Assembly: GCA_034090805.1 (NCBI GenBank)
Contig: JAXDRV010000138.1
Coordinates: forward strand, 66,188-130,187
From: Clostridia bacterium
Lineage (GTDB): Bacteria > Bacillota > Clostridia > UBA1381
Length of the DNA stretch: 64,000 nucleotides
Direction: 5' to 3'
Under the pieces are notes generated by a model, which saw only the letters and a program-made list of their open reading frames with translations, was not told the origin of the DNA and made no database searches. Positions 1 to 8,334 of the stretch are shown here, piece by piece. Numbering within the stretch: position 1 is the stretch's first letter; each line of letters opens with the position of its first letter. Both the position numbers and the translations under genes were made by a program.

Positions 1-1129
1 GGTCGGCAAGGAAAATTGTATGTACATTCACCTGACTCTTATCCCGTACATTTCAACCTCCGGTGAGCAAAAGACAAAGCCGACACAGCACAGCGTAAAG
101 GAGCTGTTAAGCTTTGGTATTCAGCCGGACGTGCTTGTTTTGAGAACGGAAAAGCCGCTTGAGGAGGGACTTGCGGAAAAGATAGGTCTTTTCTGTAATG
201 TTCCGAAGGACTGCGTTATAGAAAACCTTGATTTGGATACGCTTTACGAGGTTCCGCTCGGACTTGAGGAGCAGGGGCTGGCAAGAGTTGTATGCCGCAG
301 ATTGGGACTTGAGGACAGAGAGCCGCAGCTCGGCGAATGGAAAGCTATGGTTGATGTTGTCAAGGAGCTTATGAAGGGCGAAAGCGACGAGGTTACAATA
401 TCGCTTGTCGGCAAGTATGTTTCGCTCCATGACGCATATATCTCTATTGTTGAGGCATTAAAGCACGGCGGAATTGAAAATCACGCAAATGTAAACATAA
501 ACTGGGTAAACAGTGAGGAAGTAACGAAGGAAACAGTTCACGAAATGCTTAAGGACAGCGATGGAATACTCGTTCCGGGCGGCTTCGGCGACAGAGGAGT
601 TGAGGGTAAGATACTTGCGGCAGAATATGCAAGAGAAAACAATATACCGTATTTCGGTATTTGCCTCGGTATGCAGATTGCGGTTATAGAATACGCAAGA
701 AACGTTCTCGGATATGAAGATGCTCATTCCTCGGAGCTTAATCCCGAAACGACTCACCCGGTAATTGATCTTATGCCGGAGCAGAAGGACGTTGAAAATC
801 TCGGCGGAACGATGCGTTTGGGGATTTATCCGTGCAAAATCAAGCCGGATACTCTCGCAGCCGAGGTGTACGGCAGTGATTTGATTTATGAAAGACACAG
901 ACACCGTTATGAATTTAACAACTACTACCGCAGAGAGGTAGAGGAAAAGGGCATGGTGCTGAGCGGTCAGTCGCCCAACGAAAAGCTGGTTGAGATGGTG
1001 GAAATTCCGGAGCATCCGTGGTTTTTGGCGGTACAGTTCCATCCGGAGTTTAAGTCACGCCCCAACCACGCACACCCGCTGTTCAGATCATTCATTGGGG
1101 CAGCACTTAAATATAAAGAACAGAAATGA
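1..1129 (+). CDS. pyrG: CTP synthase, C-terminal portion (gene start lies upstream of the window)
   Basis: Frame is open from the window edge. The translation carries [20 protein letters not shown] and glutamine amidotransferase motifs [21 protein letters not shown]. Confidence 0.9.
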
Positions 1130-1233
1130 TTTCTCCGCCGTACGGATCTGATCCGTCGGCGGATATTTCAAAGCAGAGGACAATTGAAAAATCCCGTTTC
1201 ACAATTGTTCGGAAAATAAAGGGAGATTTATAT

Positions 1234-2967
1234 ATGAAGCATTATTGGAAATACATTAAGCCGTATATTCCGTACTTCATTTTCGGGCCGCTGCTGATGC
1301 TTACCGAGGTAGCGGGAGAAATCGTTCTTCCCAAGATTATGTCGGAGATGATTAATGTCGGAATAGCAAATGCCGACGCGGCATATATTTTGGGGCGTGC
1401 GCTGAAGATGATAGGCTTTGTCTGCGTGATGATAATCGGCGGCGTGGGAGGGCATTATCTCTCCATAAAAGCCGCGGTTTCGTTTTCGGCGGATTTAAGA
1501 AAGGATATGTTCGGAAAGGTACAGGGCTTTTCATTCAAAAACATAGACGATTTTTCGACAGGGTCGCTTGTTACCCGTCTTACGAATGATATTACACAGA
1601 TGCAAAATCTCATACGTATGTCACTGATTATGGCGATGCGTGCACCGGGAATGCTGATAGGCGGACTGATTATGGCTCTCAGCATAAACAAGGAGCTGGC
1701 TACGATACTTCTTGTTGTTATACCGTGCCTTGCGGTTGTTATAACCATACTTCTGCGCACAGGCTTTCCGAGATTCGGAATTATGCAGAAAAAGCTTGAT
1801 GCTCTTAATTCGGGAATCCAGGAAAATATCACAAACGTGCGTGTCGTAAAATCTTTTGTTCGTGAAAAATTTGAAATTGAAAAATTCGGAAAAGCAAATA
1901 CGGATCTGATGGATACGACTCTGAGCGCATTGAGCATAGTTGTTATGACGATGCCCGTTATGACGCTTGCAATGAATATAACAACGCTGCTCGTTGTATG
2001 GAACGGCGGAAATCTTGTTATAAACGGCGGTATGCAAATCGGAGATCTGTCTGCATTTACTACATATATAGTACAGATTCTGATGTCGCTTATGATGCTT
2101 TCGATGCTGATTATGCAGATGTCGAGAGCCATGGCGTCATCAAAACGTATATGCGAGGTGCTTGATACAAAAGCGGATTTGAGCGATGATAAATCGGCGC
2201 ATAAGGATTCGGTGATTTCAAACGGAAAAATTGAATTTAAAAACGTTTCGTTCAGATACTATAAAAATAGGAAGGAAAATGTTCTCGATAATATATCATT
2301 TACGATAAATCCCGGTGAAACGGTAGGAATTATAGGAACAACGGGAAGCGGCAAAAGCTCGCTTGTGCAGCTTATACCCCGTCTTTACGATGTAAATGAG
2401 GGAGCGGTTCTGATTGACGGAGTTGACGTTCGTGACTACAGTCTTGAGCATCTGAGGACGGCTGTCGGAATGGTTCTTCAGAAAAACGTGTTGTTTTCGG
2501 GAACTATCAAGGATAACCTCAAATGGGGTGACGAGAATGCCTCGGATGAGGAAATATTTGCGGCGGCGGACAGCGCACAGGCGCACGGCTTTGTGGAAAG
2601 CTTTACGGAGGGATATAACACAGAGCTGGGTCAGGGCGGAGTGAACGTGTCCGGCGGTCAGAAGCAAAGATTGTGTATTGCAAGAGCATTGCTGAAAAAG
2701 CCGAAGATTTTGATTCTTGACGACAGCACAAGCGCAGTCGATACGGCAACGGAGGCGAAGATAAGAGAAGCGTTCAGAACATCTCTTAAAGACTCCACAA
2801 AGATAATAATTTCGCAGAGGATAAATTCCGTGATAGAAGCGGATAAAATAATAGTTCTTGAGGACGGTCGTATTTCCGGAATAGGCACTCATGAGGAGCT
2901 TATGAGAAGCAGCGGCGAATACAGAGAGATATACAGCTCTCAGACCGATATGAAGGAGGTGTCTTGA
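1234..2967 (+). CDS. ABC exporter, fused permease/ATPase subunit (first of a heterodimeric pair)
   Basis: ATG 1234 is preceded by AAAGGGAG. A multi-TM N-terminal half is followed by Walker A GTTGSGKSS, signature VSGGQKQR and Walker B ILILDDSTSAVD. The ORF-track start at 1126 lacks an RBS. Confidence 0.9.
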   Translation: MKHYWKYIKPYIPYFIFGPLLMLTEVAGEIVLPKIMSEMINVGIANADAAYILGRALKMIGFVCVMIIGGVGGHYLSIKAAVSFSADLRKDMFGKVQGFSFKNIDDFSTGSLVTRLTNDITQMQNLIRMSLIMAMRAPGMLIGGLIMALSINKELATILLVVIPCLAVVITILLRTGFPRFGIMQKKLDALNSGIQENITNVRVVKSFVREKFEIEKFGKANTDLMDTTLSALSIVVMTMPVMTLAMNITTLLVVWNGGNLVINGGMQIGDLSAFTTYIVQILMSLMMLSMLIMQMSRAMASSKRICEVLDTKADLSDDKSAHKDSVISNGKIEFKNVSFRYYKNRKENVLDNISFTINPGETVGIIGTTGSGKSSLVQLIPRLYDVNEGAVLIDGVDVRDYSLEHLRTAVGMVLQKNVLFSGTIKDNLKWGDENASDEEIFAAADSAQAHGFVESFTEGYNTELGQGGVNVSGGQKQRLCIARALLKKPKILILDDSTSAVDTATEAKIREAFRTSLKDSTKIIISQRINSVIEADKIIVLEDGRISGIGTHEELMRSSGEYREIYSSQTDMKEVS

Positions 2968-2968
2968 T

Positions 2969-4765
2969 ATGCCGCCTTTAGGAAGAAATAACAAAAATCA
3001 AGGACCCGTGAAAAAGCCGAAAAACACAAAGGCAGCCCTTAAGCGGCTCATGGGATATATAAGTGATGAAAAACCAAGGCTTGTGCTTGTGCTGATATGT
3101 GTTCTGCTGAGCGCAGCGTCAAACCTTGTCGGTTCATATATGCTAAGACCCATAATAAACAGATATATCGTGCCGACGGACGGCTCGGCGGGAGATCCTG
3201 TTGGGCTTATCGGAGGAATTGCCGTAATGGCGGCGGTGTATTTGGTGGGAGTGGGCGCAACGTATCTGCAAATGCGTACAATGATAGGCGTGTCGCAGAG
3301 AGCACTGTCAAAGCTGAGAACGGAGCTGTTCACCAAAATGCAGAAGCTGCCGGTAAGGTTTTTCGACACTCACCCCACGGGCGAGGTCATGAGCCGATAT
3401 ACAAACGACGTTGACGCAATAGGCGAAATGCTCAATAATACGATAGTCCAGATTATATCCGGAGTTATCAGCATAACGGGTACGCTGTGCCTTATGATTT
3501 ACACAAATCCGTGGCTGACGCTTGTAACGCTTGCTATGGCACCGATTATGGCAAAGGTCGGAACGGCGATAGCGTCACATTCGAGAAAGCATTTTGCGTC
3601 ACAGCAGAAGGCATTGGGCGATGTCAACGGATACATAGAGGAAAGCGTGACGGGACAGAAGGTCATAAAGGTTTTCTGCCATGAGGATAAGGCGATAGAG
3701 GAATTTTCAGAGCTGAACGATAAGCTCAAAAACGCACAGATAAGAGCGCAGTTTGCGGGTGGTATAACGGGACCTGCGATGAATGCACTCAGCCAGGTGA
3801 ATTATACGCTTACTGCCTGTGTCGGCGGTCTGCTGTGTGTTTTAAGAGGCTTTGACGTGGGCGGACTTACGGTGTTTGTGAATTTTTCGAGGCAGTTTTC
3901 GAGACCTATAAACGAATTTGCGCAGCAGCTTACGACTGTAATGTCGGCACTTGCGGGTGCGGAGAGAGTTTTTGAGGTTATGGACGCAGAGCCTGAAAAA
4001 GCGAACGAGGGCGAGCGTGACCTCGGTACGGTAAGTGGCGATGTTGTTGTAAACAACGTCACATTCGGATATAATCCCGACAAAACGATACTTAAGAATA
4101 TTTCGATTTATGCGCATCCCGGTCAGAAAATAGCTCTTGTAGGCTCAACCGGAGCAGGTAAAACAACGATAACCAATCTCATAACGAGATTTTATGATGT
4201 CGATGACGGTGAAATAACCATAGACGGAGTGAATATTCAAAATATCACGCGTGACTGTCTGCGGCGCAATATTGCTATGGTTTTGCAGGATACGCATCTG
4301 TTTACGGGAACCGTTATGGAAAATATAAGATACGGCAGACCAGACGCAACCGACGATGAGGTGCGCGCGGCGGCTATGACGGCAAGCGCACACAGCTTTA
4401 TACGCCATCTTCCCGACGGCTACGATACTGTGCTTGAGGGTGACGGAGCGAATTTGTCGCAGGGACAGCGTCAGCTTTTGAATATCGCAAGAGCGGCTTT
4501 GTCGAAAGCACCGATACTTGTTCTTGACGAGGCGACAAGCTCTGTCGATACCATGACCGAAAAGCATATCAACGAGGGCATGGACGCACTGATGGAGGAC
4601 AGAACAACATTTGTAATTGCACACAGACTGTCCACAGTGCGTAATGCGGACGCAATTATGGTGCTTGAAAACGGCGAGATAATCGAACGAGGAAGCCATG
4701 ATGAGCTGCTTGAGAGGAAGGGCAGATATTACGAACTTTACACAGGCTTGAAGGAATTGGATTAA
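2969..4765 (+). CDS. ABC exporter, fused permease/ATPase subunit (second of pair)
   Basis: ATG 2969 lies one nt after the upstream stop, with RBS AAGGAGG. Motifs: Walker A GSTGAGKTT, signature LSQGQRQL, Walker B ILVLDEATSSVD, H-loop IAHRLST. Confidence 0.9.
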   Translation: MPPLGRNNKNQGPVKKPKNTKAALKRLMGYISDEKPRLVLVLICVLLSAASNLVGSYMLRPIINRYIVPTDGSAGDPVGLIGGIAVMAAVYLVGVGATYLQMRTMIGVSQRALSKLRTELFTKMQKLPVRFFDTHPTGEVMSRYTNDVDAIGEMLNNTIVQIISGVISITGTLCLMIYTNPWLTLVTLAMAPIMAKVGTAIASHSRKHFASQQKALGDVNGYIEESVTGQKVIKVFCHEDKAIEEFSELNDKLKNAQIRAQFAGGITGPAMNALSQVNYTLTACVGGLLCVLRGFDVGGLTVFVNFSRQFSRPINEFAQQLTTVMSALAGAERVFEVMDAEPEKANEGERDLGTVSGDVVVNNVTFGYNPDKTILKNISIYAHPGQKIALVGSTGAGKTTITNLITRFYDVDDGEITIDGVNIQNITRDCLRRNIAMVLQDTHLFTGTVMENIRYGRPDATDDEVRAAAMTASAHSFIRHLPDGYDTVLEGDGANLSQGQRQLLNIARAALSKAPILVLDEATSSVDTMTEKHINEGMDALMEDRTTFVIAHRLSTVRNADAIMVLENGEIIERGSHDELLERKGRYYELYTGLKELD

Positions 4766-4779
4766 GACGTAAAAATTTT

Positions 4780-4821
4780 GGTGTAAAGCCTCGAAAATAA
4801 TAGGTTTTACACCTTGATTTT
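4780..4821 (+). terminator. Intrinsic terminator after the ABC pair
   Basis: Stem GGTGTAAA (4780-4787) / TTTACACC (4806-4813), followed by TTGATTTT. Confidence 0.6.
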
Positions 4822-4842
4822 GCGGCTGTGATATGATATAAT
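4814..4842 (+). promoter_or_regulatory. Sigma-A-type promoter for the 4967 gene
   Basis: TTGATT (4814-4819), 17-nt spacer, TATAAT (4837-4842), with TGA giving an extended -10. Confidence 0.55.
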
Positions 4843-4966
4843 AAAAACAATACAGATAACCGGAACGATTTATATCGACAAGGGCGGTGTAGAGTCTGAA
4901 TTAAGGGGAGAGTCGCATCGCTTTTTGTGCTGTTATTCATATAAAAAAAGGAAGGGGAGGCATTTA

Positions 4967-7114
4967 ATGAAGGTATATCAGATGATATATACGTCGGTGC
5001 TTCACAGCCTGTCCGATCAGGAGCTTGGACTGTCGAATCAGTCGGGAATGAGAGTTTACTCCTGTTCGCAGGGATTGGAGCGGGAAAACCTTGATGAGGT
5101 GGCAAGGTTTTCAAATTACAGACTGCCTAAAAACAATAAGCAAAGCTATTCCGACAAAGTGGGTGATCCGGGAGTGCCGGAGCTGTTCCCGAAAACCTTC
5201 AGAACGATTAAGCTGTCTGACGGCAAATATGCTGCAATCCAGTCGGTGTTTGCGGGAGTTGACCACCAGGGTCATGAAGGGAATTTCTTTGCTCATGCGC
5301 TTATATTTGAAAACGTTGGTGAGGACTTTTTCCCGGAGCAATACTGTCACAGCAAAACGTTCAGAACGCATCTGACGGAAAAGGAAAGCGCAAGGGAGAT
5401 CGTTCATTATCTTCCGATACTCGAGGACGCAGAGCGAGATCTCGGCTATGAGGAGGAGATATATAAATTTATTGACGAGCATAAAAAGGAGCTGTCATAT
5501 CTGATAAACAGCCTGATAACCATGCTTCTCGGCAGCAATATCAAAAACATCTGCATAGCAACGCTCAGTGCGGAGGAAACGGAAAAATATCTGATTTCTC
5601 TTAAATATCTTCTGCCGCGGGACGTAAGCCTCGGTGCGGGAATATCAACGTATAATGTCTACCTTCCCTCCGACAAGCAGGACAGCATATGCCTGCACGG
5701 AACGATTAAGGGTAAAAACAATATAACACGTGAGGCGATAGAGTCAAAGCCGGATTGTATGTATATCGATATGGACAAGATAGATACGTCTACATACGAA
5801 ATATCGCCGCTTTTGGCAAACTGGAGCGTAAAGGAGCTGCGTGAGCAGTACAATACGCTGAAAATCAATTCCGTTACGGGACTTCTCGATTGGGTGTCAA
5901 GCTTTGACAATACCGACAAGCCTGGTATGGGCGGAAAGCTGATACGCCTGAAATCATCGGCGGGCGATGCGGCATTTGCAAAGCGTGCCTCCGAAATTTA
6001 TCCGCTTATAAAGGATAAGGAATACGATGCGGTAAGATTTGAAATTACAAAGGTAATGTACGACAATATAGATATGTTCCCCGATGAGCTTGAGGATCTG
6101 ACGGATTCATACCTCACTCTGACGATTGAAAATCTTGCAAAAGGTCATAAATACGACCTCGGAGCGGTATTTTCATCAACTGCAAACGAAAAGAGCCAGG
6201 TAGCGGTGATGAAGAAAAAAATCCCCGAAATCATGGCTAAGCTCGGAGCGGCGGGGAGCAAAATAAGCGATAAAAACAAGTTTGTCATTCTCGGATTTTT
6301 TGCACAGCTTAAGCATAAATACGGCGACGACAGCTGGAAGGACTTTTTTGCGGGAAACAGAATGCACCTTACGACCTTTGTCGAGATTGCGGCAGGAGTT
6401 GTTATAACGGGCTACGGCGTAAAGCCGTTTTCGCCGCCGTCAAACTGGGAAAAGGACGATTTGGACGAGCTTATAGCATTTTTTGAAAGCTCCACCGAGG
6501 ACGAAAAACTGCGCAGCCTGTGCCTTAAGTATATATATTCAAATACCGACACGGACTGGAACTCCTACGGCATTACTCTGACAAAGCACACCAAAACAAG
6601 GGGCGAGCAGGCAGCGGATATGAGAAAAATACACGCAATTCTCTCAAAGGTAGGCTATGAGCCGTATCAGAGAGGCACGTATATGAGTGTAAAGCCCGAT
6701 GTGAGAGCTGATATTGAGGGCAGTATGTCACCGCTTTTGCTCACAAGGCTTCTCGACGCATATTACCGCTGGCAAAGATGCTACGGAAATCAGCCGCAGG
6801 CAAAGAAATATGCGCAGAGATTCAGAGCACTGCTGCTTGAGATGAAAAAAACTCAGCGCACATGCTATGATTACGTAATTCCCAAGCTTGCGCTTGAGAT
6901 AATCGAAACGCCCGGCCATTACCACGAAATTATGATTAACATGGATACAATGTATCCGGGATTTTGGAATTGGTTTTTGATAGGCTATAAGCGCAGAAAG
7001 CGTGATGATGAAATAATGCTCACCTATACAAGAATTTATGAAGCAAGCAAATCGAAAATGTCAAAGCTGCCGATAAGGAAAAAGCTGAGGGCGGCATTCG
7101 GAAACATAGATTAA
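4967..7114 (+). CDS. Large (715 aa) soluble hypothetical protein; N-terminal ~130 aa resemble the GAP1-N (GTPase-associated protein 1 N-terminal) domain family
   Basis: ATG 4967 lies 7 nt after GGAAGGGGAGG. No TM segments. The N-terminus MKVYQMIYTS...SGMRVYSCSQGL...GHEGNFFAHALIF recalls the xQxxYTS / GNFxAHxL pattern of GAP1-N domains; this is recollection, not a search. I recognise no motif in the rest of the protein. Confidence 0.6.
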   Translation: MKVYQMIYTSVLHSLSDQELGLSNQSGMRVYSCSQGLERENLDEVARFSNYRLPKNNKQSYSDKVGDPGVPELFPKTFRTIKLSDGKYAAIQSVFAGVDHQGHEGNFFAHALIFENVGEDFFPEQYCHSKTFRTHLTEKESAREIVHYLPILEDAERDLGYEEEIYKFIDEHKKELSYLINSLITMLLGSNIKNICIATLSAEETEKYLISLKYLLPRDVSLGAGISTYNVYLPSDKQDSICLHGTIKGKNNITREAIESKPDCMYIDMDKIDTSTYEISPLLANWSVKELREQYNTLKINSVTGLLDWVSSFDNTDKPGMGGKLIRLKSSAGDAAFAKRASEIYPLIKDKEYDAVRFEITKVMYDNIDMFPDELEDLTDSYLTLTIENLAKGHKYDLGAVFSSTANEKSQVAVMKKKIPEIMAKLGAAGSKISDKNKFVILGFFAQLKHKYGDDSWKDFFAGNRMHLTTFVEIAAGVVITGYGVKPFSPPSNWEKDDLDELIAFFESSTEDEKLRSLCLKYIYSNTDTDWNSYGITLTKHTKTRGEQAADMRKIHAILSKVGYEPYQRGTYMSVKPDVRADIEGSMSPLLLTRLLDAYYRWQRCYGNQPQAKKYAQRFRALLLEMKKTQRTCYDYVIPKLALEIIETPGHYHEIMINMDTMYPGFWNWFLIGYKRRKRDDEIMLTYTRIYEASKSKMSKLPIRKKLRAAFGNID

Positions 7115-7134: not shown

Positions 7135-8052
7135 ATGGTTATGAAAAACTCAGTTAAAAAAATATTTTTAGTTTTATGCGCAGCGTCCGTAATGCTGATT
7201 TCTTCTACAGCTTTTGCCACTCCGACGAGCGAGCCGGCAGCGAGAACGACAAAAACAATATCCGCCTCCGATACATCTGCGGCAACAAGTACAGCGGGTG
7301 ATGACGAAGTGGAGGATACTTCCGATACCGAAGCCGATACGGAAAACACAACAACGGCAGGTGCGGCAGCATCGGGAGCGGTTGTGCAGTCATCGGCAAA
7401 TCCCGTTCCGACAGCTATATCAACAGGTCAGAATCAGACAGGTGTTGTTCAGAATACCGAGGCGCAGAGAGTGGCGGAAAAGAAGTATGCCTCAAAGGGT
7501 TCGCTTGCGGTATGGATTATACTTACGATTTTGATTAATGCAATATTGAGCTTTGCAATAGCAAACAGATTTTACAAGCTTGCCAAAAAGGATACTCACG
7601 TAAGCGCCGAGCTGCGTGCTCTTCGCCGTGACCTTGAGGAAAAATTCGTAAGCAATGTCGGCGGCTTTACCGAAATGGAAACGGATGTTTCAAATACAAA
7701 CGATAATTATTCCATGAACGGCTCCATAAAAATGCCCGAAAGAAAGAGCACTGATTTTGCGGCTGAATCCGAGGACGTGTTCAAGAGATGGGAAAGCCGT
7801 ATGTCGCAGCGCAGCGGCGCAAGAGCTGTCGTTACCGAGGAAACGGATGCAGAGCCGGAGGAGGATTTTGAAGAAGAGGAAAGACGTCCTGTCAGAAAAT
7901 TCCGTCCGACACGTGCAAGCGTGCCCGAAGCTGACGATGCGGAGGACGAGAGCTATGACGACGAGCAGCCGGAGGAAAGATCCGTTGCAAAGAGCGTTAA
8001 GAATAAAGCAAAGAATATCCTCGGCGATATATTCCCGTTTAAAGAGGATTAA
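7135..8052 (+). CDS. Single-pass membrane protein with signal peptide, low-complexity S/T/A/D ectodomain and acidic cytoplasmic tail
   Basis: Starts 20 nt after the upstream stop (GAAAGGA RBS). Signal-like MVMKNSVKKIFLVLCAASVMLISSTAFA, TM helix LAVWIILTILINAILSFAIANRF, and a D/E-rich C-terminus. Confidence 0.7.
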   Translation: MVMKNSVKKIFLVLCAASVMLISSTAFATPTSEPAARTTKTISASDTSAATSTAGDDEVEDTSDTEADTENTTTAGAAASGAVVQSSANPVPTAISTGQNQTGVVQNTEAQRVAEKKYASKGSLAVWIILTILINAILSFAIANRFYKLAKKDTHVSAELRALRRDLEEKFVSNVGGFTEMETDVSNTNDNYSMNGSIKMPERKSTDFAAESEDVFKRWESRMSQRSGARAVVTEETDAEPEEDFEEEERRPVRKFRPTRASVPEADDAEDESYDDEQPEERSVAKSVKNKAKNILGDIFPFKED

Positions 8053-8140: not shown

Positions 8141-8169
8141 TTGACAAGTGGGCATTCAAATGATACAAT
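8141..8169 (+). promoter_or_regulatory. Sigma-A-type promoter of the ilvBNC operon
   Basis: TTGACA (8141-8146), 17-nt spacer, TACAAT (8164-8169), preceded by TGA (extended -10). A ~165-nt leader follows. Confidence 0.6.
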
Positions 8170-8334
8170 ATTCTATTATGATAATATTCTCACATATATA
8201 CAACTGTGTGAGTTGACGGCGCAAAGATATACTTTTTGCGTGATATACAATCATCCTTTATGTAAAGATGATGATGCGGCAGAATACCTAAAATGCCGTG
8301 GGACAATTTATACTGTAATAAAGGAGGAATTTAT

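Follow-up and report, generated by a model that had tools for sequence, protein, structure and literature searches.

We analysed a stretch of 64,000 nucleotides (nt) from a Clostridia bacterium (assembly GCA_034090805.1, contig JAXDRV010000138.1, positions 66,188 to 130,187 of the forward strand; hereafter the window), in which positions 4967-7114 of the plus strand encode a 715-amino-acid (aa) protein related to GTPase-associated protein 1 (GAP1). The GAP1-like gene lies in the order pyrG, ABC1, ABC2, GAP1-like gene, p305, ilvB, ilvN, ilvC, and p305 (7135-8052, plus strand) encodes a 305-aa protein with one predicted transmembrane helix. As judged from gene order in related genomes, the GAP1-like gene and p305 form an obligate two-gene module. 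An earlier reading by a model that saw the letters of the window alone (the sequence-only reading) had described the GAP1-like gene as an orphan encoding a soluble protein, and had placed it with the conflict and immunity systems from which GAP1 proteins were described.

The frame at 4967-7114 is open over 715 codons on translation, without an internal stop, as that reading had it, and the strings it quoted (SGMRVYSCSQGL, GHEGNFFAHALIF, KRRKRDDE and KLPIRKKLR) are all located in the translation. A ribosome-binding site, GGAAGGGGAGG, precedes the ATG by 7 nt. A longer version of the gene, starting from a TTG at position 4925, was ruled out because all homologues begin at MKVYQ; the 715-aa protein has this N terminus in common with over 200 full-length homologues, which are 703-717 aa long. 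The protein was taken to be soluble, and the hydropathy scan agrees, with zero hydrophobic windows along its length. The alignment of GAP1-like homologues, with identities down to 37%, contains 50 invariant columns.

Pfam matches the protein with a single domain, GAP1-N2 (PF20013), at residues 4-140 (E 9.5e-16, 58.5 bits, gathering cut-off 24), and the same domain is matched by all 50 aligned homologues. The GAP1-N assignment is therefore correct and can be specified as the N2 type on a significant profile match. The N-terminal domain is where it was placed, over some 130 aa; the homology extends further, to about residue 280, and takes in a second domain. Comparing a profile of 50 members of the GAP1-like family (A1) with one of 30 canonical GAP1 proteins (A2) by hhalign gave a probability of 100 and an E value of 2.1e-43 over residues 1-280, with nothing aligned past residue 280. 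The aligned region spans what is GAP1-M (PF20014) in the canonical proteins. Within the GAP1-like family, PF20014 reaches 12 of the 50 members, and these weakly; a PF20014 search of the window's own genome gave no match even at E 10, so that GAP1-M in the window protein is visible by profile-profile comparison only. Because the profile-profile match covers residues 1-280 and then stops, the protein resolves, by these comparisons, into GAP1-N2 (residues 1-140; 4967-5386, plus strand), whose limits also draw on the predicted secondary structure, a GAP1-M-like alpha/beta domain (residues ~155-280; 5429-5806, plus strand) and a family-specific domain of about 430 aa (residues ~281-715; 5807-7114 including the stop codon, plus strand), which is predicted to be all-alpha and has a basic end.

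The C-terminal domain sets the family apart. A HMMER search of 1.84 billion cluster representatives returned about eight full-length clusters of the GAP1-like family at 50% identity, and the next matches were many proteins of 840-900 aa, aligned over residues 1 to ~250 only, which Pfam identifies as canonical GAP1 (GAP1-N2 plus GAP1-M). For residues ~281-715, HMMER and hhalign found no homology outside the GAP1-like family, and Pfam and PDB sequence searches gave no match; the 430 aa are unrelated to the C-terminal region of canonical GAP1. The canonical N2-type proteins examined also lack a Pfam match in their C-domain, and hence provide no GAP1-C reference. NCBIfam and PADLOC scans of the whole protein returned nothing meaningful, the PADLOC result being empty at E values up to 1. 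The AlphaFold2 (AF2) model has a predicted local distance difference test score (pLDDT) of 90.1 for the whole protein, and residues 1-400 reach a pLDDT of 92.0 with a predicted template-modelling score of 0.88. Its secondary structure runs strand-strand-helix-strand-strand-strand-helix in the N-domain, continues with the alpha/beta domain and is helical throughout thereafter. The description of the rest of the protein as helix-rich and without a placeable motif has thus held up against Pfam, PDB sequence profiles and Foldseek.

GAP1-N2 and GAP1-M are homologous in the two groups of proteins, and the motifs YTS and D..G..GN.F.H of canonical GAP1 are kept in the GAP1-like family. The most conserved loop reads DYSGRxGNYFxH in canonical GAP1 and DxxGxxGNFFAH in the GAP1-like family, such that D, G, G, N and H are retained whereas the Y, S and R that are near-invariant in the canonical proteins vary. 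This variation would represent a partial relief of constraint, which we infer from the alignments and which is consistent with loss of the GTPase.

The second gene of the module, p305, encodes a signal peptide, a Ser/Thr-rich ectodomain, one transmembrane helix (residues ~122-146) and a cytoplasmic part, as predicted by hydropathy, and has no Pfam domain. In an alignment of 21 orthologues the ectodomain varies greatly in length and sequence, and the cytoplasmic side is conserved. The conserved juxtamembrane segment reads NRFYKLxKKDxHVxxEIRALRRDLEEKF...VGGFSE, and the cytoplasmic part further carries the motifs FxKWE and KYxPTR, a charged disordered linker and a C-terminal LGDIFPF(K/D)E. Gene neighbourhoods were compared in 18 genomes and at a further 78 loci; with the exception of one record that lacks the label, the sources are metagenome-assembled genomes from the gut. 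At every locus with sufficient downstream sequence, p305 lies directly 3' of the GAP1-like gene, with a median gap of 13 nt (73 loci). The 145 detectable p305 homologues all come from the same lineage, are free of Pfam domains and have NCBI locus tags consecutive with those of GAP1-like genes. The description of the protein as an orphan does not hold, since p305 accompanies its gene invariantly, and the downstream membrane protein that the sequence-only reading had singled out as a possible conserved neighbour is indeed one.

The gene for canonical GAP1 typically follows one for a DO-GTPase, or the two are fused, and the N2-type systems add an FNIII-repeat protein (Kaur, Burroughs, Iyer and Aravind, 2020, eLife, PMC7159879). 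The GAP1-like gene lacks this defining trait, an adjacent or fused DO-GTPase, and differs further in having none in its genome. In its own 98.5%-complete genome, searches with the two DO-GTPase profiles (PF19993 and PF19975) found neither DO-GTPase1 nor DO-GTPase2 at cut-off, and P-loop fragments only; DO-GTPase2 was likewise found in none of five relatives, each 98-99% complete and from a different genus. In a positive control, GAP1-N2 is present in 6 of 400 other Bacillota genomes, and in all five of those examined for it, DO-GTPase2 exceeds the cut-off and shares contig and strand with GAP1-N2 (~0.3 kb upstream in four, ~8 kb off in one). The absence of a GTPase partner, first noted for the immediate neighbourhood, thus extends to the genome, and on these searches the GAP1-like protein has no DO-GTPase partner and its GTPase has been lost. 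A check confined to neighbourhoods found no FNIII-repeat protein, tubulin, HSP70/GrpE or kinase/PP2C gene in the window or around the related locus L014, a further difference from the themes of the canonical systems. A shared feature is the membrane-proximal context with a transmembrane partner, which was noted for the N2-type systems (PMC7159879) and which the GAP1-like gene has as well.

The GAP1-like gene occurs in 86 of the 151 genomes of the host's bacterial family and in 13 of that family's 25 genera, always as a single copy (split over two contigs in one genome), and its reading frame is intact, without internal stops, in all 86. Presence is consistent within genera (for example 10/10, 19/19, 19/19 and 10/11 against 0/20, 0/12 and 0/10), and 399 genomes from other families of the class yielded no copy. 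The GC content is flat across the region, at 41-49%, with no composition island, and mobile genes near the cassette are not consistent across loci. At L014 (13454-17887), genes for a tyrosine integrase, a Mob_Pre relaxase and an IS-type transposase lie ~3 kb downstream of the cassette; they do not occur in the window. Carriers are gut Clostridia sampled from chickens, rabbits, ruminants and humans, and include one apparently cultured bacterium, 'Lachnospiraceae bacterium MD329' (L052), whose record is not labelled as a metagenome-assembled genome. Together, these distributions establish, by comparative genomics, the two-gene module as part of the core genome of 13 genera in this gut Clostridia family (the Ornithomonoglobus/Hominilimicola group), inherited vertically and present once per genome, in contrast to canonical GAP1, which is sporadic. 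The gene is core rather than accessory, and its single copy, genus-consistent presence and unremarkable composition leave the conflict/immunity framing of the sequence-only reading unsupported; the module looks domesticated rather than a mobile defence system.

Upstream of the module lie two ABC half-transporter genes, ABC1 (1126-2967, plus strand) and ABC2 (2969-4765, plus strand), each with a transmembrane and a nucleotide-binding domain (Pfam ABC_membrane and ABC_tran). ABC1 has a Walker B of ILILDD, with DD for DE, and Q in the H-loop, and so a degenerate ATP site; its predicted heterodimer partner ABC2 has a degenerate signature, LSQGQ, together with Walker B LVLDE and H in the H-loop, which make up a consensus catalytic site. 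The pair has the characteristics of heterodimeric type-IV exporters with one degenerate ATP site, similar to BmrCD and TM287-288, and is otherwise generic and MsbA-like, with all NCBIfam matches under the curated cut-offs. The earlier statement that no ATPase is encoded in the cassette overlooks this pair, whose products are ATPases and which precedes the GAP1-like gene in most loci, with a median ABC2-GAP1 gap of 40 nt (69 loci). In G016 the four genes are tightly packed, with gaps of -4, 11 and 2 nt, the last of these between the GAP1-like gene and p305. By spacing and gene order, the ABC pair is operonically linked to the GAP1-like gene in most genomes.

Orthologues of ABC2 (63-82% identity) occur in 78 of the 151 family genomes, in the same 13 genera and all within the 86 carriers of the GAP1-like gene. 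None was found in the 65 genomes without the GAP1-like gene; the best ABC2 relative in cassette-less genomes is 39-45% identical. The genus g7 has the GAP1-like gene in 10 of 11 genomes and the ABC2 orthologue in 5 of 11. Upstream of the pair, pyrG, encoding CTP synthase (20-1129, plus strand; Pfam CTP_synth_N and GATase; the 3' part, cut by the window start), is found in most related loci and forms a conserved upstream anchor. In two cassette-less genomes the order AsnC, aminotransferase, pyrG is kept and is followed by unrelated genes. The pyrG tree has a basal polytomy and does not settle whether cassette-less genera nest among carriers, which would point to independent loss of the four-gene block; the co-occurrence of the ABC and GAP1-like genes may thus go back to a small number of evolutionary events.

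The GAP1-like gene and p305 also occur together in two loci where the ABC pair is absent upstream. In L101 the GAP1-like gene and p305 follow AsnC and an aminotransferase gene, and both pyrG and the ABC pair are missing; L102 has no ABC pair within 2.9 kb upstream of the GAP1-like gene. The genomes of both loci have no ABC2 orthologue, and their closest ABC1 relative is 47-48% identical. pyrG is an unlikely partner, as L101 keeps the two-gene module without an adjacent pyrG and has a different pyrG type elsewhere in its genome. The ilv operon, which the sequence-only reading rightly reported downstream, was rejected as a partner; ilvB is absent from 78 of 78 related loci and the adjacency is therefore specific to the window species.

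Several features of these neighbours were recorded in passing. pyrG ends within the first 4 nt of ABC1 (ATGA, 1126-1129), where stop and start codons overlap, and the CTP synthase gene appears to be translationally coupled to the exporter gene. Two deeply divergent pyrG types exist in the family, separated by branches of more than 1.3 substitutions per site (L108 = G552:C84, L028 and L029 against window 20-1129); in G552 the pyrG-ABC segment is lost beside the GAP1-like gene and the other pyrG type lies elsewhere. At L099 (2051-6654), genes for an alpha-L-rhamnosidase and a 750-aa SLH-domain protein stand between ABC2 and the GAP1-like gene. At L018 (7904-9650; genome G017), the ABC2 orthologue is split between two frames at about residue 414, through a frameshift or an assembly error, and the GAP1-like gene and p305 are intact downstream of it. 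The window also has, within 8141-8292, a promoter close to consensus (TTGACA-17-TACAAT, extended TG), which precedes ilvB by ~120 nt and leaves room for a leader or attenuator.

Comparisons of the predicted fold bring out two groups of GTPase- or membrane-associated proteins, at a level below significance. Sequence-profile searches of the PDB with the family, its N-terminal 400 aa or canonical GAP1 gave compositional helical-repeat noise only, and Foldseek of the full model against a viral library found nothing. Against the PDB, the full model matched generic alpha-solenoids and, weakly, DENN-type proteins, among them DENND1A, C9orf72-SMCR8 and FLCN-FNIP2, none of them significant. For residues 1-400 the best match was Acinetobacter baylyi TagF (9t0n; E 7.8e-3, probability 0.82, template-modelling (TM) score 0.27-0.31); FLCN-FNIP2, C9orf72-SMCR8 and Pseudomonas aeruginosa TagF were the other leading matches, again none significant, although the order of the matches is suggestive. 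The structure search suggested by the sequence-only reading thus agrees with a helical C-terminal part and yields no significant structural match. A literature search found no link between TagF and DENN proteins.

TagF consists of an alpha+beta N-domain and an alpha/beta C-domain and is cytosolic; the single-pass protein TagZ, whose periplasmic domain is disordered, brings it to the membrane by means of a short conserved peptide on the cytosolic side, which fits into a groove (bioRxiv 10.64898/2025.12.08.692957). The TagF-TagZ pair of Acinetobacter type VI secretion likewise combines a cytosolic protein with a single-pass membrane partner, and TagZ resembles p305 in joining a short conserved cytosolic motif to a variable, unstructured extracytoplasmic part. 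The two systems differ in that TagF has no sequence similarity to the GAP1-like protein and lacks the extra 430-aa helical domain, that TagF serves type VI secretion whereas the GAP1-like gene is in no such locus and its hosts are Clostridia (Bacillota), and that the motif is N-terminal in TagZ and C-terminal in p305. TagF-TagZ is the closest functional analogue of the GAP1-like/p305 pair, by analogy and with no homology implied. The DENN/longin regulators (DENND1A, C9orf72-SMCR8, FLCN-FNIP2), whose longin-DENN-dDENN module has been described (PMC3521125), show a similar domain order of N-domain, alpha/beta domain and helices in the model comparisons and are GTPase-associated, as canonical GAP1 also is; the matches, to either model, are non-significant (E 0.008-0.3, TM <=0.29) and there is no sequence-level link, and we treat the resemblance as a possible lead without claiming membership.

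We propose that the GAP1-like protein is a membrane-recruited adaptor descended from GAP1, a mechanism that we think has about an even chance of being right. The motifs in the cytoplasmic tail of p305 would bind the GAP1-like protein, at its helical domain or else in the groove between N2 and M, and this docking would recruit it to the membrane. Membrane recruitment is proposed with TagZ recruiting TagF as the precedent. At the membrane, the GAP1-like protein would serve an envelope-associated process as its adaptor or regulator; this process would most plausibly be tied to the presumably co-transcribed ABC exporter, probably connected with it and yet not dependent on it, and the variable ectodomain of p305 would be the outward-facing part.

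Several observations weigh against this proposal. The TagF match is below significance, and no effector or enzymatic domain is recognisable in the GAP1-like/p305 module. At least five g7 genomes, together with G552 and G553, carry the GAP1-like/p305 pair without an ABC orthologue; one of the ABC-less g7 genomes is 97% complete with 6% contamination. The link to the ABC pair may be mere inherited synteny, as one gain and one loss could explain the co-occurrence. Furthermore, in the window the spacer between ABC2 and the GAP1-like gene is 201 nt long and contains a promoter-like site, TTGATT-17-TATAAT with an extended TG (4814-4842, plus strand), which was found by consensus scan only and may serve as an internal promoter in the window species. 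A terminator scan of this spacer (4766-4966) found none after ABC2; by eye, the spacer has only an AT-rich 8-bp hairpin with a 17-nt loop at ~4781-4813.

Two other functions can be set beside the adaptor, and we regard each as unlikely. In the first, the N2-M module, ancestrally an NTPase-binding platform, would have been re-targeted to the degenerate nucleotide-binding domain of ABC1/ABC2, making the GAP1-like protein an accessory regulator of the exporter with p305 as its tether. The operonic spacing in most genomes, the fact that no ABC orthologue was found in the 65 genomes without the GAP1-like gene, the absence of the four-gene block after pyrG in cassette-less relatives, and the single degenerate, presumably regulatory, ATP site of the pair all point this way. 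Yet many ABC exporters are heterodimers with a degenerate site, related genomes do not count as independent samples and the pyrG tree cannot decide the nesting. Moreover, several genomes retain the GAP1-like/p305 pair without an ABC orthologue, and the ABC pair is therefore dispensable for the selection that maintains the module.

In the second, which we likewise consider improbable, the module would be a residual immunity or conflict system, with the p305 ectodomain as the sensor of an invader or of damage to the envelope and the GAP1-like protein as the trigger of an effector, without a GTPase switch and possibly via the ABC exporter. The ancestry is in line with this, the parent family being described solely from predicted conflict systems (PMC7159879), as is the hypervariable p305 ectodomain joined to a conserved cytoplasmic part, reminiscent of the variable sensors of conflict systems, and the GAP1-like protein evolves faster (38-85% identity) than the ABC proteins (61-83%) or pyrG (71-90%). 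Against these stand its single, genus-consistent copy at a fixed site next to pyrG, the lack of island composition and of consistently nearby mobile genes, and the absence of the strain-level patchiness typical of defence genes. None of the PADLOC protein models of anti-phage systems matches the protein, and no effector domain and no FNIII, tubulin, HSP70 or kinase theme is present in the window or L014 neighbourhoods.

A broader interpretation, in which the GAP1 N2-M module would be a prokaryotic counterpart of the longin-DENN NTPase-regulatory platform, in a fold class that would include TagF, and would in this Clostridia family have parted from its DO-GTPase and been connected instead to a membrane tether and an ABC ATPase, strikes us as distinctly unlikely. 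It is barely credible that the gene is a functionless, decaying remnant of a DO-GTPase system, as the lost canonical partner and the relaxation of three near-invariant loop residues are outweighed by conservation that already contradicts it: a frame intact in 86 of 86 family genomes, complete copies of 703-717 aa, 50 invariant columns at identities down to 37%, a fold predicted with high confidence and a conserved partner gene in p305.

GAP1/DO-GTPase systems are known only from comparative genomics; our literature search found the founding paper alone and no member studied experimentally. The GAP1-like family shows that the GAP1 N2-M module can last for long under purifying selection without any GTPase. 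In this family the module has gained a new C-terminal domain and a membrane partner of its own, and it belongs to the stable gene core of Clostridia that are common in the gut. The GAP1-like family thereby separates what the module itself needs from what the GTPase contributes, and a simple two-gene system with an apparently cultured carrier offers a route to what GAP1 domains bind. If the weak resemblance to TagF and DENN proteins holds, it would also have implications for the prokaryotic ancestry of eukaryotic GTPase regulators, and if the module is indeed a longin-DENN counterpart, the GAP1-like family would be a natural case of a regulatory platform switching its class of NTPase.

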